Source: an uncultured virus (IMG/VR IMGVR_UViG_3300033998_000157) (Duplodnaviria > Heunggongvirae > Uroviricota > Caudoviricetes). From it: a stretch of DNA of 64,000 nt. Made by a program: the position numbers and the translations under genes. The notes under the pieces were generated by a model that was given only the letters and a program-made list of their open reading frames with translations, made no database searches and was not told the DNA's origin. This document shows, piece after piece, positions 4,855-52,683 of the stretch (position 1 is its first letter; every line of letters begins with the position of its first letter). The DNA lies in IMG/VR virus record IMGVR_UViG_3300033998_000157; one strand, 5' to 3'.

Positions 4855-5586
4855 ATGTCTAAAGTAATTGCGTTTTATAATGTGAGAAAAGGTGTAGGGA
4901 AGACTTTTTTAAGTTATTTATTTGGAGCATCTTTGGCATATAAAAACGTGCTTTTGATAGATATGAATCCTCAGGATGATTTAACTAATATGTTATTGAA
5001 TGAACGTGATTTAAAATTTGTTGGTGGATTAAATAGTGGAATGATATTTTCTGACAAAGACTTTTTGTATAATGATATTGTTTTTGATAGTAAAATAGAA
5101 GGGTTAAAGATAATACCAGCACATTTGTCTTTGGTAAAACATGAGATTCCGCAATTTGAACAAAGCGATTCGAGATTGAAGATGTTTATAGAGAGACATT
5201 ATAATGAGTTCGATTATATTTTGATAGACGGGCCATCGACGTTAGGGAATTTGGCATATAATATCATACAAGCTTCTGATAGTATAGTTATACCTGTTAA
5301 GCCAGAAATGCAAGCCGATATAGGTATTATATTGACTTATAATGTAATAAATAGATATACAAATAAGGACGTAGTTTGTGTAATGAACAAAGTGAATGGT
5401 GAAAATGAACGGTATGCGAAAGATCTAAATGCGAAATACGGTAGAGTGTTTATAGATGAAGTTGTTTATGATATGGAAGAAGATTTGAAGGAATGGAAAC
5501 GTAAAGGAATGAAAGACTATGTTCTATTGTCATCGAAAAACTTTACGATTATAAATGGAGTTTTAAATAGAAAAGTATTTGTATAA
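4855..5586 (+). CDS. parA: ParA/Soj family ATPase (divergent, no adjacent partner)
   Basis: NVRKGVGKT Walker A variant, LLIDMNPQ, DYILIDGP, ASDSIVIPV. Confidence 0.85.
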   Translation: MSKVIAFYNVRKGVGKTFLSYLFGASLAYKNVLLIDMNPQDDLTNMLLNERDLKFVGGLNSGMIFSDKDFLYNDIVFDSKIEGLKIIPAHLSLVKHEIPQFEQSDSRLKMFIERHYNEFDYILIDGPSTLGNLAYNIIQASDSIVIPVKPEMQADIGIILTYNVINRYTNKDVVCVMNKVNGENERYAKDLNAKYGRVFIDEVVYDMEEDLKEWKRKGMKDYVLLSSKNFTIINGVLNRKVFV

Positions 5587-5725: not shown

Positions 5726-6289
5726 TTAAATTTTAGCATACGGGCTTTTATATATTATTTCTAAATAAGGGCTTTCATAGAGATCTTGAGGTGAACACCA
5801 TTCATCTTTTTCGCAAACTGGAAGTCCTATTTCTCTATATACTCTTGCAACTGCTTCTGAACAAATGAGTGCATCTTTATTATCTCCACCCATTTTATCT
5901 TCGAGAAGTTTTTCTAATCCGAAAGCTGTACCTAATTCTGCTACGCCGTTTTTTACTAGTGATGTATAATCATATGGAACATTCCAATATTTTTTCATAG
6001 CTTCTTGAATTTCTGTATAGTTAGATAACTTTGGATGACGTAAAATAGTAAGTTTAGAAAGTGTCTACATATTATGTTCTATAATGTGTGTTCCGGCTCC
6101 TGTGGCTGCTAATACATAGTTAGATGAATAAACTATCTCAGCGTGGATATATTCATTGCGTGATAAAAGCATCTATGTATCTGCTACCCATTTACCGAAT
6201 GTATCCTATACTGTTTGATAAAGATCTAATCTGGTTGGGAATAATAAAATATCTCCTGGTTTTAATGAAAAAGCTTCTATGGTTTTCAT
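5726..6289 (-). CDS. permuted papain-like NlpC/P60 (YiiX/YebB-like) protein; 3 in-frame TAG
   Basis: with TAG as sense: LKPGDILL, YIHAEI, PYDY, ICSEAVARVY; ATG overlaps the upstream TGA. Confidence 0.8.
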
Positions 6290-6678
6290 TTTACCACCTT
6301 CTCTATTAAAACGAATGTTGAAGCAGAGTCTTTGTTTTCGTAGATATCAATTATTTTGAAGTTAGAGAATAAATAGCTTGCATATTTATAAGAAATTCCT
6401 ATAAACTTATATTCTGTATCGACTTTATCGAATTTTAAAATGAAACCTTCTTTATCTTCTGATGTTTTTGTGAAAGGTCTTGAAAAGAAAATAACCACTT
6501 CTTCAACTGTCTAATTTTTAAATATCATTACAGTTCTTTCTGCTTTTTCAGCTTCTTCTATGGTAGCAAATACTGTTTTGCTTTGAGGTTTAAATGTCTA
6601 ATAAGTTATAAATGCACCTACCTAAAGTGCAATCTAAGTTATGATAGCCACCCAGTTGTGCCAGTCAATTTTAATCAT
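6286..6678 (-). CDS. membrane-anchored protein; 4 in-frame TAG
   Basis: MIKIDWHNWVAIIT*IAL*VGAFITY*TF forms one transmembrane helix if *=Ala; AGGAG RBS. Confidence 0.75.
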
Positions 6679-6964
6679 TGATTTTCACTCCTATTTTTTT
6701 AGCAATAGATGCTTTTGCCTAAATAAGTTGCATAATTTCTTCTTCTAATTCTTCATCTTCTATGGTGGTTATAAAATCAATTCCTGCGTCTACTAAATAT
6801 AATCCAAGATTGTTTGAAACTTTATCTGCTTGTTCATCTCCTAATTTGCTTCTTAGCAATTCAACAAGTTTTTTAATATATTTTTCTGGATCTGCTTTAA
6901 CAAGTAAAATTCCAGAAGCGAATGTTAAACCTGCACCTACTATAAACCATAATAATCCTTCCAT
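6671..6964 (-). CDS. small membrane protein, holin-like candidate; 1 in-frame TAG
   Basis: AGGAGG RBS, N-terminal TM helix; TAG read-through ends at a TAA overlapping the next ATG. Confidence 0.65.
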
Positions 6965-7032
6965 GATAACACCTCCTATGATTTTGTTCAAATGTTAATT
7001 AACAAATGAGACTTAAAAAAGAGGTGATTGAT

Positions 7033-12179: not shown

Positions 12180-12767
12180 TTACCATTCCTTTCTGGATTT
12201 AATTTCTTTCTTATTTTCATACATCTGTTTATCAATATTTTCTATAATTTCTTTTAGTGTTTTGTTATTATCATATCTAATTTCGTAATAACCAACCGCA
12301 AATCCATAATCGCTAATTTCACTAAATTGTATTCTTGATTTTTCAATTCTGTGTTTAAAAATAGCTATAGGTATATTCATTGCAAATAGCAAAAATTCAT
12401 CTCCGCCTGTACGAACTATAATATCATCGCTTCTGAAATTTGATTTTAAAATTCTTACAAATTCCTTAATCACATAATCTCCTTGTTTGTGACCTTGAGT
12501 ATCGTTAATTAGCTTTAAATTATTGATATCAAATATTGCTATAACACCGTGTTTATGTTCCTCTAATGCTTTTTGTATATATAGTTCCCCATAGTGCTTG
12601 TTATACGTGTTGGTAAACATGTCTTTAGTCGCTGCTTTCTTTGTTCTAATAAGTTTAAGTTTCATATACAAAATCACTAATACCCATGTTACATATAATA
12701 ACAATGGCTCAGGTAGAAAAAACCAACCTTTTATTATGTAAATTATCGTTGTAGCTATCACCAACAA
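12180..12767 (-). CDS. membrane-bound GGDEF diguanylate cyclase (RBS-led ATG at 12796 is 1 nt out of frame)
   Basis: DINNLKLINDTQGHKQGD, RSDD I-site, RTGGDEF, two N-terminal hydrophobic segments. Confidence 0.85.
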   Translation of the reverse strand: MLVIATTIIYIIKGWFFLPEPLLLYVTWVLVILYMKLKLIRTKKAATKDMFTNTYNKHYGELYIQKALEEHKHGVIAIFDINNLKLINDTQGHKQGDYVIKEFVRILKSNFRSDDIIVRTGGDEFLLFAMNIPIAIFKHRIEKSRIQFSEISDYGFAVGYYEIRYDNNKTLKEIIENIDKQMYENKKEIKSRKEW

Positions 12768-15880: not shown

Positions 15881-18800
15881 TTATGCACATGCTGTCCAAC
15901 CGCAATCAGGACAATCTACACAACTTGATTGTGCTCTTAATTTACTCTTACATACAGGACATCTTTTATTTCCTTCTTCGTCTATATAATATCCTTTTGC
16001 ATCAAGTATCCAATTCTTAGTTTCTTCTTCTTTTTGAATTAATTCTTTACGTTTCTTACCTTTAGATGTTGCTATGTTTAATAATTCATTCAATGCTTCA
16101 TACATTATTTGTGTAACTGGTGAATATTCATTTTTCCAATTTTTTACTTTTCTTAATTGCTTAATTGTTTCTTCGATCTTTACGCCAGATCTAATAGATA
16201 CACTTATTAGTCTTCCTGCTGTTTCAAATAATTCGGCATATTCTTTTGTAGTTTGTGTTGCTCTGAAGAATACTTCGAATGGTTCTCCTTCAACCAATCC
16301 TAATTCAACAAACATTCTCTTTTCTTCATCATTAATTTTAAATGTAATGGTTTTCTTCATTGTTTGAATAATAGCAGGTCTTTCTTTTGGAAGTATCTTT
16401 TTTGTTTTCTTATCAATATTAATGTTTAATTGTAATTTTGGCTTATCTGTTTTCTTTTCTTCTTTTTTCTTTTCAACTCTTGATAATATAGGTGTTCTTG
16501 AACCTTCTACATATACGGTAACACCTTTGATTTTGAATAATTGCGATAAGATATAGAAATTATTTACTACATTTACAGTATTTACAAATTTACTATATTC
16601 TTTTGTTTTCACTAATTTATCAAATGTGTCGTGTTTTTCTAAGAATTCTTCTTGTTCTGAATATGGTGCGTATTTTGATACAAAGTTAGCTACAGCTTTG
16701 AAATTATGTTCGTCTTTGCAATATTTTTCTAAGTATTGTTCAACTATTTCTTTATCCATTCTGTATTTTTCAAAATCTTCTAAAATCTTATTCATGTATT
16801 CAGAACCATATATTTTAAATTTATCAAAATCAATACTATCAACATCTGTATCTCTTTGAATATTGAATGTTACTGATGTATTCATATCTATATAAATATT
16901 TGATAAGAATAACATTGCTAATCTATCAATCATATCTAAATCAGATGTAGTAACGATAAAGTCTTTATATACTTCTTCTGGTTTTTCACCATTGATTATT
17001 TTTGTAATAATTTCTTTTGCTTTTTCTTCTCCATAATTTTCAATTAAGTAATCTTCTAATGCTACATCATATACTTCTACTGTATATTCAGAAGGCATAT
17101 CTGGGTTAATTCTTCTTCTATAAGCTAATAAGAATATTGGTTCGATACCAGATGACACTTGAGTGATATAACTTATAGATCCTGTTGGTGCGATTGATAA
17201 TAACCTTGCGTTTGCTATTCCATTATATTGTTCTATTATTTCGCCATTTCTATCAATTAAAGCTATTTCTATTTTTGTGTCTGGATTATCTGTATTTACT
17301 AAATAATATAATTTATAATTTCCTTCTTTATTTTCTTCAGCAACAAAATTAGTATCCTTTGTTATACTTTCGATATCTCCTAATCTAATAAGTGTTCTTG
17401 CTCTATCGAGTGCTTCTTCAAATCCTTCAAAAGAACCTATTATTTTAGCTATGTCGGTTGAATTAACCACAACTGCATTAGAAATATGTTTCATTATATC
17501 TTTAAACAAATCATATGATTCTTTGCTTCCATATCTAAGACCTAATTTTAACAATACAGAAGACAATCCCATGTAACCCAAACCTGTATTTCTATATCTC
17601 CTTGTGTTATATGTCAATTCAGGTAACGGAAATTCATTTGAGAAATTAGAAAGAGTTAAGAATGTGTGTAATAATTTTGTCATGCTATATAAATTGCCGA
17701 ACATAAAATTATTGTTTTTATCAACAAATGAATATAAATTTAAGCTTCCTAATACACATACAGATTGATCGTATCCATTATATTCGGCACAGTCATAAGA
17801 TAGCACTCCGTTTGTTACCCATACAAAATCAGGACCCGCTTCAATATCGAATACTTCTTCTCTTTCAACATTTGTTATTTCAACGATTTCTAACCATTGA
17901 TTTTTTTCTAAGAAATGTTTTGCATTTCTATATAATGGTGTTTCAAATAATATATCAAACAATTTCTTTTTATTAGATCTTAAATGTCTGAATATTTCTT
18001 TTAATCCGTCTCTATATAATGTAGAAATAACTAATCTATAATAATCTTTTTGAGTATAAGTTTTGCCATTTCTCTTATCATAATAACCTTTACCTTTCCT
18101 CGATGTTTTTACGTTGTTTGTGTAAATTCCATACATAGCAAACAATGGTTGTAATTTGGATATAATATCTTCGTATGTAGATGATATAGAAATGTGATTT
18201 CCTTTCTTTGTGAATGAAATTGTTCCGTCACTATCAAAGTATCCTGATATAAATGCACTTATAACTTCTTCTGACGATGTGAATAATTGTTCTGGCAACA
18301 TTTTATTGTCTTTTGTGCTAATATATTCAACTTCATCTATTCCGTCGATTTTTTCATATAATTTGAATACTTGTGAAATCCATTTATTGAATTCATTATC
18401 ATTAATTCTAATTTGAACTGCGTTATAATCTTTGTCATAAACCTTATATGATGTATTTGATTTTTCTAATAATTCTGTAATTGCGTTGTATAAATCTACA
18501 TCTTCTGCATTGATTGTTAATGTTGTTCTAATAAATACATTTGAATGTGTTTTGTTTTTCTTTAAAGTAATTGAACCATCACCAAGTATTAAACCGAGCA
18601 ACCATGCTTTTTCTGTTACGCTTAATTCTGGTTTTATTTCTTTTAACCATTCATCATTTCCAACAATATTCTTTGCTACATTATCTAAAACGTATTGTAT
18701 TTCATCTCCGATTTTTAAATCTTGTGCCATAACCCATTCTTTATCTTTTGTATATAATTTATGTTCGTTAGTTACTCTAATCTTTATTCCGTTTTTAAGA

Positions 18801-19288
18801 ACTATTTCTTTGATATCTTGAACTCCGTTGTTATAGAATTTTTTAATTGGCAAGAATTGTTTTGAAATAGGACTCCATACTTTCATATCTGTTGTTAAAT
18901 CTTTTGCATTTATTAATCCTCTATCTGTTAAAACCTTTGTATCTCCAACAACACATGGATTTACACTTGTTATTTCTGATTTAAACGCTATCGGATTATC
19001 TTTATTTATAGAATCAAAATTAATAATTCCTGGTTCGGCGTGCAATGTAGTATTTACAATAGTGTTTAACCATAAATCTCTTGCTTTTTTTGTAAATCTA
19101 ATTGATTTATCATGTGGATCTACCAATTCATAATCTTCATCTTCTAATACCGCTTTAACAAATTTATCATTAATACCGATTGAAATATTTGCGTATTTTA
19201 ATGTTTGATATCCTTTATCAAAATCCGTTTTCTTATTAATAAAATCTTCTATTTCTGGATGATCAATGTTTAATAAGAACATATTAGC
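15881..19288 (-). CDS. nrdJ: class II (B12-dependent) ribonucleotide reductase, exon 2, contains an intein
   Basis: ANMFLLNIDHPEI, NP/CAE active site, CVLGSLNL, GLGYMG, SIAPTGSIS, KGVTVY, C-terminal Zn ribbon. Confidence 0.92.
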   Translation of the reverse strand, partial: ANMFLLNIDHPEIEDFINKKTDFDKGYQTLKYANISIGINDKFVKAVLEDEDYELVDPHDKSIRFTKKARDLWLNTIVNTTLHAEPGIINFDSINKDNPIAFKSEITSVNPCVVGDTKVLTDRGLINAKDLTTDMKVWSPISKQFLPIKKFYNNGVQDIKEIVLKNGIKIRVTNEHKLYTKDKEWVMAQDLKIGDEIQYVLDNVAKNIVGNDEWLKEIKPELSVTEKAWLLGLILGDGSITLKKNKTHSNVFIRTTLTINAEDVDLYNAITELLEKSNTSYKVYDKDYNAVQIRINDNEFNKWISQVFKLYEKIDGIDEVEYISTKDNKMLPEQLFTSSEEVISAFISGYFDSDGTISFTKKGNHISISSTYEDIISKLQPLFAMYGIYTNNVKTSRKGKGYYDKRNGKTYTQKDYYRLVISTLYRDGLKEIFRHLRSNKKKLFDILFETPLYRNAKHFLEKNQWLEIVEITNVEREEVFDIEAGPDFVWVTNGVLSYDCAEYNGYDQSVCVLGSLNLYSFVDKNNNFMFGNLYSMTKLLHTFLTLSNFSNEFPLPELTYNTRRYRNTGLGYMGLSSVLLKLGLRYGSKESYDLFKDIMKHISNAVVVNSTDIAKIIGSFEGFEEALDRARTLIRLGDIESITKDTNFVAEENKEGNYKLYYLVNTDNPDTKIEIALIDRNGEIIEQYNGIANARLLSIAPTGSISYITQVSSGIEPIFLLAYRRRINPDMPSEYTVEVYDVALEDYLIENYGEEKAKEIITKIINGEKPEEVYKDFIVTTSDLDMIDRLAMLFLSNIYIDMNTSVTFNIQRDTDVDSIDFDKFKIYGSEYMNKILEDFEKYRMDKEIVEQYLEKYCKDEHNFKAVANFVSKYAPYSEQEEFLEKHDTFDKLVKTKEYSKFVNTVNVVNNFYILSQLFKIKGVTVYVEGSRTPILSRVEKKKEEKKTDKPKLQLNINIDKKTKKILPKERPAIIQTMKKTITFKINDEEKRMFVELGLVEGEPFEVFFRATQTTKEYAELFETAGRLISVSIRSGVKIEETIKQLRKVKNWKNEYSPVTQIMYEALNELLNIATSKGKKRKELIQKEEETKNWILDAKGYYIDEEGNKRCPVCKSKLRAQSSCVDCPDCGWTACA
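17792..18955 (-). mobile_element. 388-aa intein with LAGLIDADG homing endonuclease, ending in Asp
   Basis: NP|CVVGDTKVLT start, LGLILGDG and SGYFDSDG motifs, VFDIE block F, NGVLSYD|CAE end. Confidence 0.92.
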
Positions 19289-19642
19289 CATTACCACACT
19301 GTCTTTCGACAGCCACGACACTTTCGTGTTGTGGTCTGGACTATATCTTGACTGATTTGGTTTCCCAAATCAGCCCGCCCCCACTTCGGCTTATCGCCTA
19401 CTCTACTCGGTTCATCATGTATATCCATATCCATTATGGACTTAGGATATACAGACGCCTTTCGATAGTCTCTGAACCTTCTCCATATCCTTACGGACTT
19501 AGGAGCTTGGCTGCTGATTACCCAATCTCCGCAATTTTCGAGCCGTCACGCTTATCCTTTCGGATTACGTTGTGGCTTGCGAAGCTCTAAGGGCTTTCCA
19601 GCAATTCGAGGGCGTTACGTAGCACTGTAATTTCCATTACAT
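19289..19642 (-). ncRNA. group I intron (354 nt, no ORF) in nrdJ
   Basis: P AATTGCTGGAAA, Q AATCAGCAG, R GTTCAGAGACTA, S AAGATATAGTCC; P1 CGUGGU/GCUACG with U.G at the 5' splice site; terminal G; splicing restores KRG|ANM. Confidence 0.93.
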
Positions 19643-20524
19643 ACCACGTTTTAAAGAACTGCTTAGCGCGATTAACTCGGTAGTATCGTTAAATGGTTTC
19701 ATAAAACTAACTGCTCCAGAAGAATTTCCTTTTATTGTACTTACAAAAGCATATTTGCTTCTTAATTTTGAGAAGTTAACTCCAAAACCACCTGCATGTC
19801 TGAATACATGTGCTTGTTTTCTTAGCATATCATAAATATCATTTGTATCATCTTCAATAGAACCCATTGAATAACAACTACCATATGCTGGATCATTTAC
19901 TTCAGATAATACTTGCCAATCATCAAATGTCATTTCCGAATAATCTTTGTACAATAATTTCACTTCTGGTTGATCCATAATTGCTCTTCCTGCGTTAAAC
20001 ATAAATGGCGATGAAGGTAAGAATATTAAGTTAGCAATAGCATCTTCAACTGCTTTTGCAAATGTGTTTAAGAATTCTAACTTCTCTTCTTCTGAAGCAT
20101 ATCTAAACAAATCTAACCATTCAGTTTCTTTTACACCTTGCATGTATGGATTTAATATATTTAAAAATCCAGTCGCAATTCTTTTCGCTGTTCTTCTTGC
20201 AAGCATTCTAAATGTTTCTGCGTAATATTCTTCTCCTATATAATTACCGTCTTTATCTTTAACATTTATTCTTTGAACTTGTTTATCTTGTATCATTTCG
20301 ATACAATACATGATTTTTTCAAATCTATCATCAGTTAATCCCATTTCTTCTGCAAATGCTTTTGGGTATTTGAATAAGTATCTTTCATATAATAATTGTT
20401 TTACGTGTGGTTTTGCTAATACTTTTTGTGAATCATAAACTCTATTTGATAAGATTTCTTTTATTGTATTTTCAAAAGTTGACATGAATAATATATCTAA
20501 ATCATTAGATACAGAAGTTTTCAT
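19643..20524 (-). CDS. nrdJ: class II ribonucleotide reductase, exon 1
   Basis: LYERYL, FLPSSPFMFNAG, GSCY, AGGFGVNFSKLR, SSGAVSFM, KRG. Confidence 0.92.
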
Positions 20525-23553: not shown

Positions 23554-24408
23554 GTGGGGGTGATGAAATTGAAAAATGTAATTTCGGTTTACAATTTAAA
23601 AGGGGGAACTGGAAAAACATTTTTTACATTTTTTCTGGCTATGTATTTAAGCAAATTAAAAATTGAACCTAAAATCCTAGTAATCGATACTGACCAGCAG
23701 GCTAATACAACTACACGTTTTATTCGTAATGATTATAAAAATTATGTAGAAAATTATAATATCAGCTTGCTATATAACACAAAGCTTTACAGTGATGATC
23801 CATATAAAATTATATTACCAAGTAAGTTTAATAACATTAAAATTTTGCCTTCTCATTTAATGCTCGCTCAATATGAAGCTAAATCATATAATAATATTAA
23901 AAGTAGCGACAGACTAATGATGTTTACAAATTCAATTAAAAATCAATTTGACTATATTATTATAGACAATCCACCAGCATTTAACATTTTCACTATAAAC
24001 AGCTTTATGGCTTCTGACTACTTATTAGTACCTGTTGTTCCAGAAATAGATTCTTTATCAGGATTAGAACAACTAATATCTATATTTGATAGTGCAAGGT
24101 CTTTTAATGAAGAATTCGAATTATTAGGCATTATATTAAATAACATTGATAAAAGATACAAATCACATATTACAGGCATAGAAGAAACAATGAGAATGTT
24201 TAAGAATGTTACATTGCATCCGATTATAGCTAAAAAAGCTATTTATCAAACATTATTATCAGCTGAAAATACAGATGAATTTGATAGTATAACTAAAAGT
24301 GCGTATGGTACAGCAAAAGAAAGTATCGAAGATATGCAACAGTTAATTAAGAATATTAAGCAACGTATTGATAAACATATATCATTTAAAAGTTTTGTAG
24401 GAGGTTGA
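23554..24408 (+). CDS. parA: ParA/Soj family partition ATPase
   Basis: NLKGGTGKT, VIDTDQQAN, DYIIIDNPP, ASDYLLVP. Confidence 0.92.
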   Translation: MGVMKLKNVISVYNLKGGTGKTFFTFFLAMYLSKLKIEPKILVIDTDQQANTTTRFIRNDYKNYVENYNISLLYNTKLYSDDPYKIILPSKFNNIKILPSHLMLAQYEAKSYNNIKSSDRLMMFTNSIKNQFDYIIIDNPPAFNIFTINSFMASDYLLVPVVPEIDSLSGLEQLISIFDSARSFNEEFELLGIILNNIDKRYKSHITGIEETMRMFKNVTLHPIIAKKAIYQTLLSAENTDEFDSITKSAYGTAKESIEDMQQLIKNIKQRIDKHISFKSFVGG

Positions 24409-26288: not shown

Positions 26289-27614
26289 TTATATTTCTGA
26301 AAAATATTTTCCATTTCTGTTAGTACGTATAAATTCTATTACTCTAATGTCAAGATCTATATAATCTTTATTCTGTTTTAAAGCACTACCTATACGCTTT
26401 CCTATTTGTACATTTGCATATTCTGGCATATTATTCTCTTCAATAGCTTTTGATAATTTAAAATATTCAAATCCATTTTCTTGTTTTCGTTTAAATAAAT
26501 CATAATAATAAAATAAAACTTCTGCATATGCTTGTTGATATAATTTAGAAATAATTTGTATATTGTAATTAAACAACCATTTTTCTAATTCATTTGTGTA
26601 TGTTGAACCGCTAATAACTAAATTCTTTAGTAAAAAGTCTTTATCTAAGATCTTATATATTAAACCATATTCATCTTGGAATAAGATTAAATTAATAACA
26701 ATTCGTAAAGTGTCTTGTGAATAATTATATTCTTTTATAAAATTAAGACTTTTTAATTCTTCTAAACTGTTTTTAATACTATCATATATTTTAGCACCTG
26801 GCTTATTTTTATCGTATGATGGGTTTATTTCGTCCATAAAATTAAAAATATTAAATACGTATTCGGATTTATTTTCTATATCAACAATACCTCTTAAATA
26901 TCTGTATATGATTTTTGAATAATCATTCTTTAATTTATTGTAATAATAAACATCCATTTTTATATAATCTTTTGTTATATCAATAAATTGTTCAATAAGA
27001 ACATGGTGAAATTGTACATAAATTTGTCCGTTTGTTATTTCAGCAGTTGTAAGTAAATTTAAAAATATATCTCCCGCATATTTGCTTTTACTATTTTCTA
27101 TATTTTTAGAAGGTATAATATTAAAAGCGTATATATGTACTCCTTGTAATTTACCTAAAGAATTTCTTAAATTTACAAGTGTCTTACCACCATAGTTTCT
27201 ATGTCCGTACATTCTTTCTACAAAATCTGCCACACTCACAGTCACCGAATATTTGGTTTTATCTCCTCGTTCAAAATAAAATGCTATAAGATTCATAAGA
27301 ATTTGTTGATCGAATGTTGTTATATATGTTGCTGAATGTGTATTTCTTACTAAATATACATAATCTTTACCTTCATCATTTGTTCCTGTTTTTTCTTTCA
27401 AAATATATCCAGTATCCATTTTCAGTGTTTTAGCTATTTCGCTTGTTGATGCAAGTTTTAAATTTTTAGATACTTTAGCACTACTTGGGACTATAAAATT
27501 TAATAAATTACCAAATCTATTGTATTCTTTATATGCAAATTCCGAATCAGCATTTTCAATTAAATTGTTATTGTCGTCAGCAATTGGTAATTTAAATTTA
27601 TTGTTATCAGACAT
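26289..27614 (-). CDS. plasmid-type replication initiator protein (Rep)
   Basis: winged-helix Rep-like segments (TFDQQIL, GGKTLVNLRNSLGKL, YNKLKNDYSKIIYRYL); iteron array directly upstream. Confidence 0.7.
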   Translation of the reverse strand: MSDNNKFKLPIADDNNNLIENADSEFAYKEYNRFGNLLNFIVPSSAKVSKNLKLASTSEIAKTLKMDTGYILKEKTGTNDEGKDYVYLVRNTHSATYITTFDQQILMNLIAFYFERGDKTKYSVTVSVADFVERMYGHRNYGGKTLVNLRNSLGKLQGVHIYAFNIIPSKNIENSKSKYAGDIFLNLLTTAEITNGQIYVQFHHVLIEQFIDITKDYIKMDVYYYNKLKNDYSKIIYRYLRGIVDIENKSEYVFNIFNFMDEINPSYDKNKPGAKIYDSIKNSLEELKSLNFIKEYNYSQDTLRIVINLILFQDEYGLIYKILDKDFLLKNLVISGSTYTNELEKWLFNYNIQIISKLYQQAYAEVLFYYYDLFKRKQENGFEYFKLSKAIEENNMPEYANVQIGKRIGSALKQNKDYIDLDIRVIEFIRTNRNGKYFSEI

Positions 27615-27730: not shown

Positions 27731-28052
27731 TTCCGTATGAAGTACGTATAAATTCCGTTTGAGGTGCGTCACTTTCCGTTTGAAGTACGTATGCAGTTTT
27801 ATAATTTCCGTTTGCAGTCCGTGTAATTTTGTTTAAAGTATGTCATTTTCCGTTTGAAGTACGTAATTATATAATTATACTCAAAAAAGCCATTTTTATT
27901 ATTCAAACACTCTATTTAAAACACTTTAACGTCATACTAATAACAAAAAGTTCCGTTTGAGGTACGTCAGTTTCCGTTTGTAGTCCGTGCCGTTCCGTTT
28001 ATAGTCCGTATGTTTTCCGTTTATAGTCCGTATAGTTTCTGTTTGTAGTCCG
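27731..28052 (+). repeat. iteron array, probable replication origin
   Basis: about 11 direct repeats TTCCGTTTG(A/T)(A/G)GT(A/C)CGT mostly 21-22 bp apart, in two clusters (27731-27863, 27951-28052) around an AT-rich spacer. Confidence 0.85.
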
Positions 28053-28142
28053 AATATTAATAACAAAAAATGGCCTTGGCATATGCCAAGACCAGAAAGG
28101 AGGGGGAATATGTAAAAGGGGGAATAATACTATGAAACTTAT

Positions 28143-28217
28143 TGGTGGAGGCAGCAGGATTCGAACCCGCAACTGCTTGATTTAGAGTCAAGTGTGTTCC
28201 CGTTACACCATGCCCCC
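28143..28217 (-). tRNA. amber-decoding tRNA (anticodon CUA) with alanine identity elements
   Basis: GGGGGCA-TG-GTGT AACGGGA ACAC-A-CTTGA CTCTAAA TCAAG-CAGTT-GCGGG TTCGAAT CCTGC-TGCCTCC-A-CCA; G3.U70, A73, encoded CCA. Confidence 0.95.
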
Positions 28218-28356: not shown

Positions 28357-29523
28357 ATGGCGTTTGTTATTGACACATCAGCATTTATTATCGGAGCTCA
28401 CAAAAACTTTACAGACGAATTAAAAACCACATTCCAAGTAATCAAAGAACTAGACGGATTAAAAGAAAACCCACGAACTAGAAGAAGATAGTTAGATTAG
28501 CTACAAGATATTGATGAGTTATTAGACGAAGGACTACTACATATTGATATGTATGAGTATGAGACAACTGATATTTCTGTTATTGAAATTGCTACAGACG
28601 ACGATATTATATTAACAACAGACACATAGTTATATTTAAGGTAGAAAATACTTGGTAAGAAATGTGAGTTATTACAAGAATGTCATCCAGAACATGTTAC
28701 TAACCCTGTTAAAGATGTGTATGTTGATAAAGATTTGAGTGGGAAAGAATTAGAAGTAGATTGGAAAATGCCTAAATATACTTATGTGAAATTATCTAAT
28801 GGAATATCAACAAGATTAGGAAAATATGTTGGTGGCAAAATTGAATATATTGATAAGTCAAGTTTTAGAGTAGGAGATATAAAAGTAGAATCTAAATGTA
28901 TGGAACAAACAATGTTAATAGATTAGTTATTAGATATACGTATTCCGCTTGTAACTGTTATTGGTCCAGCTGGGTCTGGTAAAACATTCATAACATTATA
29001 GAGTGCTCTCTATTTAGTCGAGAAGGGGCTTTATGGAAAGATTATTGTGTAGGTACCACCTGTACAATTAGGAGGAAAAGATAGATACGGATATTTGCCT
29101 GGAAGTTTAGAAGAAAAAACAATAAAACAATTTTCAGGTATTATAGATAATTTAGAAACATTGTTAGGTAAAGAAGCTAAACTTAGAATAGAGGCATAGA
29201 TAAAAGGTGAAGATGAAATATTTGAAATACAATCATTTTAGAATATAAGAGGACGTTCTATAAAAAATTAGATTATTATTGTAGATGAATCCCAAAACAC
29301 AGATCCATTAGAATTAAAAACATTCTTAACTCGTGTTGATTTGGGATCTAAAATAATATTATTAGGAGACGTAGAACAAATCGATATAAAAAACAGGAGT
29401 TTAGAAAATAACGGTTTGTTGCACGTCGCTGATAAAATGTATGATTCTGATGTATAGACAAATATTGTACTTACTAAAACATACAGATCGTAGTTAGCAG
29501 AAGAATAGATAAACAGATTATAA
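28357..29523 (+). CDS. phoH: PIN-PhoH protein; TAG-recoded
   Basis: VIDTS, VIKELDGLK, TTD (PIN); GPAGSGKT, GYLPG, IRGRS, IVDESQN, LTRV..GSKIILLGDVEQID (PhoH); 388 aa with TAG as sense. Confidence 0.93.
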
Positions 29524-46913: not shown

Positions 46914-47744
46914 ATGGCTAAATTTGTACAAAACTCATTACCATTATACAATGTGGTAAAACACGAAAAGATGAGAGAATATTCAGATGGTATCAGAATT
47001 GGCGGAGGTTTAAAGTTCAGACCAGCACCTTACTTACCAATTAAAGAATATGATGAAAACTTACACAAAGGTGTTGTTATCAAAAAAGGTGATTTTGTAA
47101 CATTAGATGAAAACGGATATTTAGTACCTGCATTTGTAGGTGAAAAAGCATTAGATTATACTGCATTAGATGTAGCAGAAGGAGTATATGACATTGATGA
47201 CTTTGGTTAGGGGAATGCAAAAGTTTCAGCTGCTAAAACTTCAACATTAAAAATCGGTACAACTGCAACAGCTGATGTAAAAATTGGAAAACCATTCGGT
47301 ATTGCAATGTACGATGTATATGCATGGGATATGGATGCAGATCCATGGTATCAAGTACAAAATCCTGTAACAGTATTAGCTGACAGAATGATATTATTAG
47401 CAATTGATACAGATCACAACAGTGTTGCTTACGAATCAGGTGACATCTTAGTATTAGATGACAAAGGATTCCCAGTACCATTCAGTTATTCATTAAATGA
47501 TACAGACACAATATCATTAGCAAATTCTGTAAAATCAGCATTAGATAGCTTAAAATATGCAATAGGTAGAGTTGTAAAAGTTATAGATATAAATGCTGAT
47601 CCAGAATGGAGAGGCGGATTAGAATACGTAGAATACAGACCAGAAGACTTTGAAATTGACTTACCTGGAAAAGCAAATGGTGGAGTAACAGATGGTATTG
47701 ATAAAGATACAAAGAAAGGTTTATTAATTCAATTAGAATTTTAA
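46914..47744 (+). CDS. putative head decoration or capsid-associated protein; 1 TAG
   Basis: joins ORFs 46914 and 47307 across TAG 47208-47210; sits between scaffold and capsid genes. Confidence 0.7.
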
Positions 47745-47778
47745 TATAATTTAAAATACAGTATAGGAGGTATGAAAC

Positions 47779-48984
47779 ATGGAATTTAAAGATTATATAA
47801 ACGAAGTGGTAGAAGAAAAAATAAACGAAATTATTGTTGGAGACACAGACGTTGTAAAATAGTTAAAAAGAATTTCAGAAGAAGATTAGAAAGTAGAATT
47901 AGTAAAAAGAATTATAAGAAACAATGGTAAATTATCAGATTCAGTTTCCAAAAAATTTGAATTACAAGACTTAATTACATCACCAGAATTTTCTGGAACA
48001 TTCCCAAAAGTTATAACAAAAATGGCAGCAGAAGTATATGAAAATAAATTAGTTATCACACAATTCTTAGAAGAAATGAATGTAGATCCAGGACCATCAT
48101 TAACAATACAAGTACCACAATTTGTAGGTGCATTTGGACAAGACTTAGATGTAGATGAATCTGGCGAATACCCAGAATTGAACCTAAAAATGGCTGGCGG
48201 AGCAGTAGCAACAGTAACAATTGGTAAAGTAGGTATCGCAGTTTCATTAACAGAAGAAACAATCAGATATTCAAGATTTGACATCGTCAACGCAGCAGTT
48301 AACGAATAGTTAAAAGCTATGGCAAGATGGAAAGAAAGAAAAGCAATTAAAATGTTCTATGAAAGTGCAAAAGTTATTAAAAATGGTGGATCAGGAGTAG
48401 ATGTATCAGGAACAGCTAACGGTGGTTTAACATTAGATGACATCGTAGATGTTGCATTACAATTTATGGAAAAAGGATTCAATGCAGATACAATTATAAT
48501 GCACCCATTAGCATATCCTGTATTTGCATTAAACGGAACATTAAGATCATTCTTCTGGGCATCAATTGGAGAAAAAGGTCAATTCTATAACTGGCCACAA
48601 GTATCTGGCGGACAACCTAAATTCTATGAAAGAATGGGTAAAACATTAGATTTAAACGGACAAAATATTGTTGGATTCGAATTACCAACAGGTATATTAG
48701 GAAAACCAATGAGATTAATCTTATCACCAGCTGTACCATACAACAAAGATACAAAGAAAACAGATATTATCGTATTAGACTCAGAAAACTTAGGTTACTT
48801 AATTACAGCTGAAAAACCAACAACAGATGAATTCAATGATCCAATGAGAGATATTAAACACTTCAAAGTAAAAGAAAGATATGGAATGGCACCAAAATAC
48901 GATGGTTCAGCTATGGGTATCATCAAAGATGTATCTGTAGTAGAAACATTTGACCCAAGACCATTCTTTGTAAAACAATTATAA
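47779..48984 (+). CDS. major capsid protein; 3 TAG
   Basis: 401 aa; ESGEYPE, KVGIAVSLTEETIRYSRFD, MARWKE, IIMHPL, KERYG; strong RBS and following terminator. Confidence 0.88.
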
Positions 48985-51186: not shown

Positions 51187-52683
51187 ATGGCAGATTTAAG
51201 ACTTTATCCTAACTTACCTGGAGTAGTATCAAGCATTTCAGCAGAAACATTAGTTCCAGAATTAGATGATTCTAAACCAAAATTCTTATTAGTTGGTTGG
51301 CATTCAGAAGATGCATTTGCAGATGGTACACCAATATTATTCAACGAACCTTACTTCATTTTAAACTCAACAATGCTTTCATCAATGTTCGGTGACACAG
51401 AAGGATTAGGATTACATGCTAAAATTATAGGAACTACATCAAACTGGGAATTATTACCAGTATTAGTAAGAGTAGGTAAAGTAGACATAAAAGCTGGTTC
51501 AGGTGCAGATGTTGATACCGCAAAAGGAGCATTATCTTAGGCAACAGCAGATGGTAATGTAACAGGAACAGTTGCAAAAGTTTCTTGGTCAGGAGAACCA
51601 ACATGGAAAGCTAACTACACATTAAAAGTTGTTGTATCAGGAACAAATATAGATGTTTATTTAAACAATGCAACAGAACCATTAGTATCTGGCGATTCAC
51701 CATTAAATATTGAAGAATTAGGTTTAAAAGTTGAAGGTTTAGCAGACGGAACAGAATATTTTGCATTCCAATATGCTGTAGAACCAACAACTGACGATGA
51801 AAAAATCAGTGCATTAAAATTAGCATTAGACGAATTAATTGGATTAGAAATTAATTACGTATACTCACCATTTGCTGTATTAGATGACGCTGGAACAACA
51901 GATCACTTTGCTACAGTATTAGCTGAATTTGCTGAAAAACAAAGCAGCCAATACAATAACGTATTAGCATATATAGGTGTAAAAGCTCCTTCTAATTATA
52001 CATATTCCGCTATTAAAAAATGGGTAAATGACTTAAAAGCTTTAATGTCAACTGGCGGAACATTTGAAAATGGAATTGTATCATCAGGAGGAGCAGATGT
52101 AGGACACAGACTTGTAATTGTAGCAGGACACGGTATTGTAGAAAATGTATCAAATGTAAAAGTTGATTTAGCTTCATATGTAGGAGCTTACTTACATGCA
52201 AATAAAGTTTATACTGGACCAATTAATTTAGAACTTACAGGAGTAACATTATTAGAATCATTATCATTAAAACAAGTAAATGAATTATCAGGACATAGAA
52301 TAACTGCATTATATAACAAACCAGGATATAATAAAACACCTGTAATATTAGTTGGTAGAACAGCAGCTCCAATCACAACACCATTTACAAAAATTTCAAG
52401 TATAATGGTTGTTAATGAATTTGTAAATGGATTAAAAAATATTGCAGATACATATTTAGGAAGACCTAACAGTGGTACAGTAAGAATGAGCATGCAATCA
52501 ACAATGCAAAACTTTGCAAACTCAATGAAACAAGCAGGAAAAATAGCAGGTGCTGTAGTAACAGTAGAACCTGATGTAACAAGCGGAACAATTAATGCAT
52601 TAGCAGTTAAAGCAAGAGTACAAGCATTTGCAGAAATCGAAGTAATTTCTATTGATGTTACTTTTGAATATCAAATAGCTTAA
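51187..52683 (+). CDS. tail sheath protein; 1 TAG
   Basis: YPNLPGV N-terminus; C-terminal sheath domain (YLGRPN, AFAEIEVI); joined across TAG 51538-51540. Confidence 0.85.

Follow-up and report, generated by a model that had tools for sequence, protein, structure and literature searches.

For phages with a genetic code unlike that of their host, Borges et al. (10.1101/2021.08.26.457843) record only two changes, TAG-to-Gln and TGA-to-Trp. The searchable literature also describes TGA-to-Gly in phages where the host itself uses TGA-to-Gly. The closest described systems are the crAss-like and Lak phages that read TAG as Gln (Borges et al.; Peters et al., PMC9523058). The stretch of DNA analyzed in the present study comprises 64,000 nucleotides of an uncultured tailed virus (IMG/VR record IMGVR_UViG_3300033998_000157) and is referred to below as the window. 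As in those phages, a tRNA(CUA) is encoded by the virus itself, TAG is abundant in frame in the late, structural, and probable lysis genes, and the early genes can be read in the standard code, with no phage synthetase seen and a low GC content. The window thus shares with code-15 suppressor systems the CUA anticodon and the TAG-recoded genome. Unlike them, it lacks the Gln acceptor end and the Gln columns, because the residue found at TAG columns is Ala and the acceptor end carries G1-C72, G3.U70, and A73 in place of the U1-A72 and G3-C70 pairs of the TAG-to-Gln phages. The theta-ribozyme paper lists 180 suppressor tRNAs that are predicted to be of Gln, Trp, Ile, and Tyr isotypes, with Ala absent from that list, and the phAss-1 paper assigns Gln to TAG. 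Two phAss-1 suppressors that we examined lack G3.U70.

Alanyl-tRNA synthetase (AlaRS) reads the acceptor end of its substrate (G3.U70, A73, G2-C71, and G4-C69) and disregards the anticodon. Hou and Schimmel, and also McClain and Foss, are said to have used tRNA-Ala(CUA) amber suppressors and G3.U70 transplant experiments in 1988, and in 1996 Hayashi-Ishimaru reportedly described the reassignment of UAG to alanine, by a tRNA with G3:U70, in some chlorophycean mitochondria. When G3.U70 and A73 are engineered onto a non-Ala body with a CUA anticodon, an Ala-inserting amber suppressor results in E. coli, and the tRNA of the window looks alike. In contrast to the engineered suppressors, that of the window is natural and conserved and would serve hundreds of codons.

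Among related cases, allo-tRNAs with G3:U70 have been given a CUA anticodon (Mukai et al., PMC5389517), CUG is translated as alanine in Pachysolen by means of a G3:U70 tRNA (10.1101/037226), and CGG has been proposed to encode alanine, again through a tRNA with G3:U70, in a genus of Clostridia (10.64898/2026.04.02.715157). Because AlaRS ignores the anticodon, a codon comes to mean alanine once the anticodon of such a tRNA is altered, and this would apply to the mitochondria, Pachysolen, the Clostridia, and the window alike. However, the first three cases are cellular or organellar and genome-wide, whereas the one in the window is virus-borne and block-wise, with a host that presumably reads TAG as stop. 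An experimental counterpart is a phage-derived suppressor, tRNACUA-151, which carries G3.U70 and A73 and which, alone among the 29 phage tRNA(CUA) screened, placed Ala at UAG when expressed in a cell-free E. coli extract (Seki et al. 2025, 10.1101/2025.10.30.685624, PMC12636597). It has the acceptor end of the window tRNA in common, but its sequence and body are unrelated. In the available text of that study it occupies one line of a screen, without analysis of TAG = Ala use in its phage, and reassignment is called infrequent with reference to algal mitochondria and allo-tRNAs. A full-text literature search, with subscription journals outside its coverage, returned no report of a phage TAG-to-Ala code, and TAG-to-alanine as the meaning of a phage codon therefore appears to be new with respect to the searchable literature.

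A CUA tRNA with an alanine-type acceptor end beside a TAG-rich gene block

By using ARAGORN, we detected a single tRNA in the window, located on the minus strand (Table 1), a detail that was not given in an earlier note on this DNA. The gene matches Rfam RF00005 with 66.9 bits (gathering score 29, E 2.2e-12), and the cloverleaf is both the minimum-energy fold (-24.1 kcal/mol) and the centroid. The folding energy as such is not significant (z -1.35, with 16 of 200 shuffles equally stable). In the predicted molecule the anticodon stem has 5 bp, the variable loop has 5 nt, the T loop is normal, and a long variable arm is absent. Its acceptor stem, GGGGGCA/UGCCUCC, provides G1-C72, G2-C71, G3.U70, and G4-C69, followed by A73 and an encoded CCA. 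The cloverleaf, anticodon, acceptor stem, G3.U70 pair, discriminator, and CCA had all been noticed previously from the letters alone, and each is confirmed; the D arm, GUGU-AACGGGA-ACAC, likewise reads as it had been written. If the GGGA at the end of the D loop is taken as G18 G19 G20 A21, a numbering that would supply G20, then the entire AlaRS identity set (G3.U70, A73, G2-C71, G4-C69, and G20) is present. The AlaRS, GlnRS, and amidotransferase identity rules applied here are those of the established literature. A search of the surrounding region with Rfam at permissive thresholds returned the tRNA only and no adjoining ribozyme.

The G3.U70 pair is rare among the phage CUA tRNAs of IMG/VR that we sampled by pattern. 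The exact anticodon-arm pattern yielded three unrelated suppressors, none of which has G3.U70. A pattern for an Ala-type D arm combined with a CUA loop yielded 14 CUA tRNAs (11 distinct), of which two have both G3.U70 and A73, and no G3.U70 pair occurs among 18 distinct CUA tRNAs that share the D-arm type of the window.

Table 1. Positions of the tRNA, its parts, and the surrounding genes in the 64,000-nucleotide window
Feature	Position	Strand	Evidence or remark
tRNA gene, anticodon CUA, encoded CCA; candidate amber suppressor	28143..28217	-	ARAGORN; Rfam RF00005; cloverleaf is the minimum-energy fold
Anticodon CUA within loop CUCUAAA (U33, A36-A37-A38)	28183..28185	-	
G1-G4, 5' half of the alanine identity pairs; G3 at 28215	28214..28217	-	invariant in 9/9 aligned Ala-type tRNAs
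C69, U70 (28149), C71, C72, and discriminator A73 (28146)	28146..28150	-	
tRNA positions 8-26, D arm GUGU/AACGGGA/ACAC; stem of Gln type, GGGA kept in loop	28192..28209	-	
Intrinsic terminator-like hairpin, 10 pairs and T run, about 50 nt past the tRNA 3' end	28071..28094	-	
Five direct repeats of 21-22 bp (iterons), between the tRNA terminator and the rep gene	27951..28058		
Rep3-type initiator gene	26289..27614	-	
Late block, an uninterrupted series of 24 ORFs with a total of 360 TAG codons in frame; genes for PhoH, large terminase, portal, capsid, and sheath, and two ORFs of about 2000 aa	28357..64000	+	PHROGs, Pfam
PhoH-like ATPase, 13 TAG codons; start 140 nt from the tRNA 5' end, on the opposite strand	28357..29523	+	
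2148-aa late protein, 101 TAG codons	31811..38257	+	no Pfam or PHROGs family
Terminase large subunit, 16 TAG codons	38911..40641	+	
Three small ORFs, 8 TAG codons in all, inside an early block that is TAG-free elsewhere; possible lysis cassette	5726..6991	-	one weak amidase-like match below the Pfam cut-off; two with hydrophobic stretches

The layout of genes in the window depends strongly on how TAG is read. Under table 11, 54% of the window lies in ORFs of at least 100 aa, and this figure becomes 93% on read-through of TAG and 57% on read-through of TGA. Coverage also rises to 88% when TAA is read through, which is expected at 29% GC and occurs without comparably long genes. TAG makes up 3.2% of the codons in the late block and, under TAG = Ala, it would be the commonest alanine codon there (360 TAG versus 285 GCA and 228 GCT, or 39.7% of Ala codons). 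The early block (1-27614) lies mostly on the minus strand, is almost TAG-free in frame, and encodes the Rep3-type initiator, two ParA-like ATPases, ThyX, ribonucleotide reductase (RNR), and thymidylate and thymidine kinases. Only 2 of 33 early ORFs end in TAG under table 11, and both fuse into longer frames on TAG read-through. The three small TAG-containing ORFs of this block may form a lysis cassette that is itself recoded, a situation also described in other phages with an altered code. A comparison of amino-acid composition between early and late genes does not discriminate between Ala and Gln, and the base following TAG shows no clear bias for avoiding termination.

The tRNA is flanked on one side by a plasmid-like origin/rep module and on the other by the beginning of the late block, and we propose that it forms a small transcription unit of its own with its own terminator. 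A hairpin with a T run likewise directly follows the tRNA in related loci. A perfect TTGACA-17-TATAAT sequence is present on the minus strand between the iterons and the rep gene, and, at the thresholds used, neither the window nor its relatives show a sigma-70-like promoter ahead of the tRNA.

Several other features of the window were observed. The two ParA-like ATPase genes (23554-24408 and 4855-5586) and the Rep3-type initiator with its iterons constitute a plasmid-like replication/partition module, and the tailed-phage genome that carries it may be a phage-plasmid. The gene for the RNR large subunit (15881-19321 and 19637-20524, both on the minus strand) contains an intein with LAGLIDADG endonuclease domains, and the N-terminal RNR domains are encoded in a separate upstream ORF. 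A gene with a GGDEF diguanylate cyclase domain (12180-12767, minus strand) is also present among the early genes. The C-terminal part of the 2148-aa late protein includes the sequence GDDDGD, which we take to resemble the metal-binding motif of two-barrel RNA polymerases.

The residue at TAG codons

An alignment of 120 PhoH homologs shows Q at the TAG columns in the 14 closest sequences, among them P0001-P0010 with 55-63% identity. This is not evidence for Gln because two of the close homologs, P0010 and P0013, are letter-for-letter TAG = Q translations of metagenome loci (L097:3959-5134 and L085:316-1509, with 22 and 23 TAG codons, respectively). Similarly, 'DEQQN' appears in 5 of 12 aligned relatives, and the others have DEAQN, as does the PDB PhoH entry 3b85. 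For this reason, we prepared profiles from distant homologs only. The PhoH profile was made from 106 sequences (P0015-P0120) with the 14 closest left out, and the terminase large subunit (TerL) profile from 96 of 141 matches (P0140-P0280) after sequences of at least 720 aa were dropped and the 9 closest were left out. In the resulting test, the log-odds of each residue are summed over the HMM match columns for each codon. Any hidden code-15 mistranslations among these 'distant' homologs would bias the outcome toward Gln, not Ala.

With the window alone (PhoH and TerL, 21 TAG columns), the profile test gives +12.8 nats for Ala, +4.3 for Ser, +4.1 for Thr, and -5.6 for Gln, and under a flat prior the posterior for Ala is 0.9996. 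As a control, the same test correctly decodes 32 of 33 sense codons with at least eight columns. The earlier note had held that the tRNA identity and the protein evidence predict the same residue, and this agreement is upheld by the full Ala acceptor set together with the presence of TAG at Ala columns of distant homologs. Ala ranks first in the profile (0.22-0.68) at TerL columns 128, 244, 379, 508, and 512, and it is also the prevailing residue of relatives P0134-P0138 at these columns. PhoH alone permits a weak call in the window (Ala 3.4 versus Thr 3.2, n = 10), and for the 13 clade members taken together the scores over 54 TAG columns are Ala 12.2, Thr 6.7, and Gln 4.2. In the alignment with 3b85, TAG codons of the window face Ala at four of five positions and Thr at one, and a sixth TAG falls in a gap.

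A codon-level tally was obtained from the 27 non-identical alignments among 32 BLAST alignments, with counts that are inflated by near-identical relatives. In this tally, TAG codons of the window face TAG 149 times in the relatives, Ala 54, Ser 50, Thr 25, and Gln 11 times. Viewed from the other side, Ala codons of the window face TAG codons of relatives 65 times, second only to Ala codons (127). The near-equal count for Ser perhaps arises because TCG is a one-step neighbor of both TAG and GCG.

Gene callers that apply code 15 put Gln at each TAG codon. If the Ala reading is true, up to 4.7% of the residues of a protein would be wrong in such translations (101 of 2148), and the mistranslation would distort alignments, structure predictions, and profile models.

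Related loci and the body of the tRNA

Relatives of the window were identified by using a DNA pattern for a clade-specific PhoH motif, which located 16 metagenome loci. A tRNA(CUA) is present in 10 of these, always on the opposite strand and 837-1086 nt from the PhoH motif (839 nt in the window). These ten tRNAs represent four distinct sequences, all of which have G1-C72, G2-C71, G3.U70, G4-C69, A73, and CCA. Among the six loci that lack the tRNA, the upstream sequence is too short in two (385 and 667 nt) and borderline in three (918-1044 nt); the remaining locus, L094, offers 1562 nt upstream of the motif, in which ARAGORN detected no tRNA. The clade-specific PhoH pattern had no match in the species-genome collection, and a nucleotide search with 7.9 kb had none in the phage collection. 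Close relatives were also not found in IMG/VR with protein searches or the PhoH DNA pattern, and among the matches listed there were only distant PhoH proteins of at most 42% identity. Of three sequencing runs examined, two, both of one study, contain the stretch that constitutes the window, without variants, and one of these may be its source; no RNA run with the stretch is listed.

We next consider an alignment of nine tRNA sequences, in which the clade members are joined by two more CUA tRNAs of the Ala type and by two tRNA-Ala(UGC) from phages. Pairs 1-72 to 4-69 are invariant in this alignment, and pair 3-70 is G.U in all nine sequences. Pairs 5-68, 6-67, and 7-66 vary in both partners, and pairing holds for 97.4% of cells. 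Thus, the G.U pair is fixed while neighboring pairs covary, which is a signature of selection on 3-70.

The D arm of the relatives' tRNAs, including those of loci L084, L087, L092, and L093, is that of canonical tRNA-Ala (GCUC...GGGAGAGC). The best full-length E. coli match for one of them is tRNA-Ala, and for another the annotated full-length matches in the phage collection are tRNA-Ala if suppressor labels are set aside. The window tRNA departs from canonical tRNA-Ala, which combines an NGC anticodon with the GCUC...GGGAGAGC body, in its CUA anticodon and in its GUGU/ACAC D stem. Over tRNA positions 8-26, manual counts give 16 of 18 matches to tRNA-Gln of Azobacteroides phage ProJPt-Bp1 and 15 of 18 to that of Caulobacter phage CcrBL9, and the D segment agrees with the Ala-type relatives at 9-12 of 19 positions. 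The best annotated matches to the whole tRNA in the phage collection are tRNA-Gln, tRNA-Asp, and tRNA-Asn, all of them weak. The 18 distinct IMG/VR CUA tRNAs with the same type of D arm, a resemblance that is partly imposed by the search pattern, have U1-A72 in 13 cases, and one of them matches the window tRNA at 17 of 17 positions of the T arm. These comparisons with phage tRNA-Gln and with Gln-type suppressors devoid of G3.U70 agree with the previous impression that the D arm is Gln-like, and after they were made we dropped the notion that it is merely a diverged Ala arm.

Overall identity, at 71.6% to the clade tRNAs versus 72.6% to the CcrBL9 tRNA-Gln, is not decisive. The acceptor strands of the window tRNA are identical to those of the clade at six of seven positions, and GGGA in the D loop is likewise shared. 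In addition, a phage tRNA-Ala(UGC) with G3.U70 has a D stem of GUGA/GCAC. Judged by its sequence, the window tRNA is a mosaic in which an alanine acceptor end is joined to a body that looks Gln-type. This body might have originated by divergence in place, through three compensatory changes in the D stem, by recombination, or by replacement with a re-addressed Gln suppressor, and these three routes seem almost evenly balanced. The origin suggested in the earlier note, that a Gln-type body acquired an Ala acceptor stem, is given here only as plausible, since in the closest relatives this site is occupied by a tRNA with a canonical tRNA-Ala body. The occurrence of two different bodies at one locus with the same identity set and the same anticodon strengthens the functional reading of the tRNA. 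Partial charging of the window tRNA with Gln may nevertheless occur via C34 and U35.

The mosaic tRNA resembles a natural version of the classic identity-transplant experiment, and natural alanine suppressors are of interest for synthetic biology. If an identity swap did take place, then the meaning of the codon would have been held fixed by selection while the body of the tRNA was interchangeable.

A similar insertion of 19-25 nt is located between the anticodon arm and the T arm in 14 of the 18 distinct Gln-type CUA tRNAs (L162-L188). It could represent a long variable arm or an intron.

Decoding, alternative readings, and a second lineage

The tRNA of the window is very probably an amber suppressor that is charged with alanine by the host AlaRS and that causes late-gene TAG codons to be read as Ala. 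The host enzyme would recognize the acceptor end and would be indifferent to the anticodon, which in turn would pair with UAG and permit the 360 late-gene TAG codons to be translated as alanine. The genes for replication and nucleotide metabolism, nearly TAG-free, would be readable by the standard code of the host, and full-length virion proteins and probable lysis proteins would be producible only once the tRNA is present. The features of the tRNA, the recoding, the Ala residues at TAG columns, and the conservation of the identity set in relatives are established, and from them we infer the charging by AlaRS, the timing of expression, and the role of this tRNA as the decoder.

The use of TAG differs among late genes. 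TAG accounts for 40-58% of Ala codons in most late genes, with 52-58% in PhoH, in the 2148-aa protein, and in several small ORFs. Much lower shares occur in the sheath gene (51187-52683; 2%), in the ORF at 46914-47744 (4%), and in the capsid gene (12%), which together with that ORF, its upstream neighbor, spans 46914-48984. Our reading of this distribution is that TAG is avoided by selection where expression is highest, and therefore that the decoding of TAG would be less efficient than that of GCN, probably because of competition with release factor 1. Together with the 101 TAG codons of a single ORF, this suggests that the decoding of TAG is costly and that release factor 1 must be handled by something not seen in the window. 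Scans with Pfam and PHROGs revealed no release factor or synthetase genes in the 64-kb window, and the contig in one sequencing run is 84,993 nt long. The description of the tRNA in the earlier note as a one-gene device, such that the tRNA alone would be sufficient, is doubtful because a single ORF contains 101 TAG codons, because the most highly expressed structural genes avoid TAG, and because the window is part of a genome.

Other explanations fit the data less well. A reading of the tRNA as a plain suppressor that inserts Gln, of the code-15 kind known from crAss-like and Lak phages and with an incidental G3.U70, is very unlikely to be correct. The D arm is of the Gln type, tRNA-Gln is among the annotated phage matches, genes of the relatives are translated with TAG = Q in public protein databases, and 28 of the 29 phage tRNA(CUA) in the Seki et al. 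screen (PMC12636597) inserted Gln. However, Gln scores -5.6 nats, versus +12.8 for Ala, at the TAG columns of the window, and G1-C72 and G3.U70 occupy the places of G3-C70 and of the U1-A72 pair that prevails among Gln-type suppressors. A canonical tRNA-Ala body is found at the same site in relatives, and the insertion of Gln would put the late genes at 7.0% Gln versus 2.8% in early genes. A pyrrolysine tRNA, or a decayed and non-functional tRNA, is scarcely credible. ARAGORN does label the gene 'tRNA-Pyl', but this label goes to every CUA tRNA and reflects the anticodon only. A tRNA-Pyl has an atypical fold with a long anticodon stem and a 3-nt variable loop, whereas the window tRNA forms a standard cloverleaf with stem and loop of ordinary size, and no pyl genes were found in the window by Pfam and PHROGs scans; the label was rejected on both counts. 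Decay is at odds with the extent of pairing across the tRNA family.

CUA anticodons attract GlnRS in E. coli. For this reason among others, a reading in which TAG is ambiguous (Ala with Gln or Ser), or in which the tRNA is not the sole or main decoder and a further factor is encoded outside the window, deserves somewhat more weight than the two preceding alternatives, although we still regard it as unlikely. It is favored by the near-equal Ser and Ala counts in the tally of close relatives, by the avoidance of TAG in highly expressed genes and the 101 TAG codons in one ORF, and by the limited view of the genome, of which the window shows 64 kb from a contig that measures at least 84,993 nt. 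Conversely, Ala and Ser are separated by 8.5 nats in the profile test, and the tRNA lacks the long variable arm that SerRS would need. Moreover, the identity set for alanine is kept in the tRNAs of all syntenic relatives. Reading of TAG as Ala by an AlaRS-charged tRNA remains the preferred explanation.

Evidence for the same reading was also found in a second lineage. A complete IMG/VR record of 115.7 kb (G001) carries one of the two G3.U70 tRNA(CUA) located with the Ala-type D-arm pattern and a terminase gene with 15 TAG codons. Terminases of named phages of Erwinia, Serratia, Pectobacterium, and Vibrio that use the standard code are among the homologs of this protein at 43-57% identity. With a profile of 110 homologs, from which the 10 closest were left out, the test yields Ala +9.0, Ser 2.9, Lys 2.5, and Gln 2.3, and 28 of 29 controls are decoded correctly. 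The alignment of this terminase with that of another record, G002 (21% identity), and its alignments with PDB entries show mixed residues at TAG. An identical tRNA is located within a tRNA array of Aeromonas phage Akh-2 (Demerecviridae, Shenzhenvirus; MK318083.1, 64060-64131), where it is labeled 'tRNA-Sup-CTA'. The Akh-2 terminase gene has 14 in-frame TAG codons, and the GenBank record annotates it as fragments. Its profile test gives Ala +14.4, Ser 3.3, and Gln -0.1. Where a TAG is not shared between the terminases of Akh-2 and G001, the other sequence has GCN five times, Ser twice, and Lys, Gly, Asn, and Val once each. The terms stop codon and suppression do not occur in the main text of the paper on Akh-2.

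As far as these sequences indicate, the combination of a G3.U70 tRNA(CUA) with TAG at alanine columns is thus also present in an unrelated, cultured lineage. Because Akh-2 is cultured, has this tRNA, and has 14 TAG codons in its terminase gene, the claim is directly testable by virion proteomics. With less than even confidence, we advance a broader proposal that TAG-to-Ala is a recurrent and unrecognized phage code in at least two unrelated lineages, including cultured Aeromonas T5-like phages, and that it is mistranslated as Gln in databases. The same tentative proposal holds that, in the lineage of the window, changes at 1:72, 70, and 73 re-addressed a Gln-type suppressor body to Ala, or the two types recombined, and that the resulting tRNA replaced a canonical tRNA-Ala-derived suppressor, which relatives retain at this site. 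If Ala at TAG holds, then the choice of amino acid in phage recoding would be open, and synthetases that are blind to the anticodon, of which AlaRS is the textbook case, could be hijacked.

Three additional observations concern related tRNAs. A tRNA identical to that of the Aeromonas phage is also found on two short contigs (L157 and L159) of a metagenome-assembled genome (MAG) titled Phocaeicola sp., and the binning is therefore a doubtful guide to the host. A third contig of a MAG (L158, 29% GC) has a CUA tRNA that starts with GGGG and ends with CCACCA, and a parse of its segments gave no G3.U70. Finally, G002 (L150 and L155), a 135 kb record classed as a provirus, carries a G3.U70 tRNA(CUA) beside a tRNA-Ala(UGC), and its terminase gene is free of TAG, so this record may represent a suppressor without recoding of the terminase gene.
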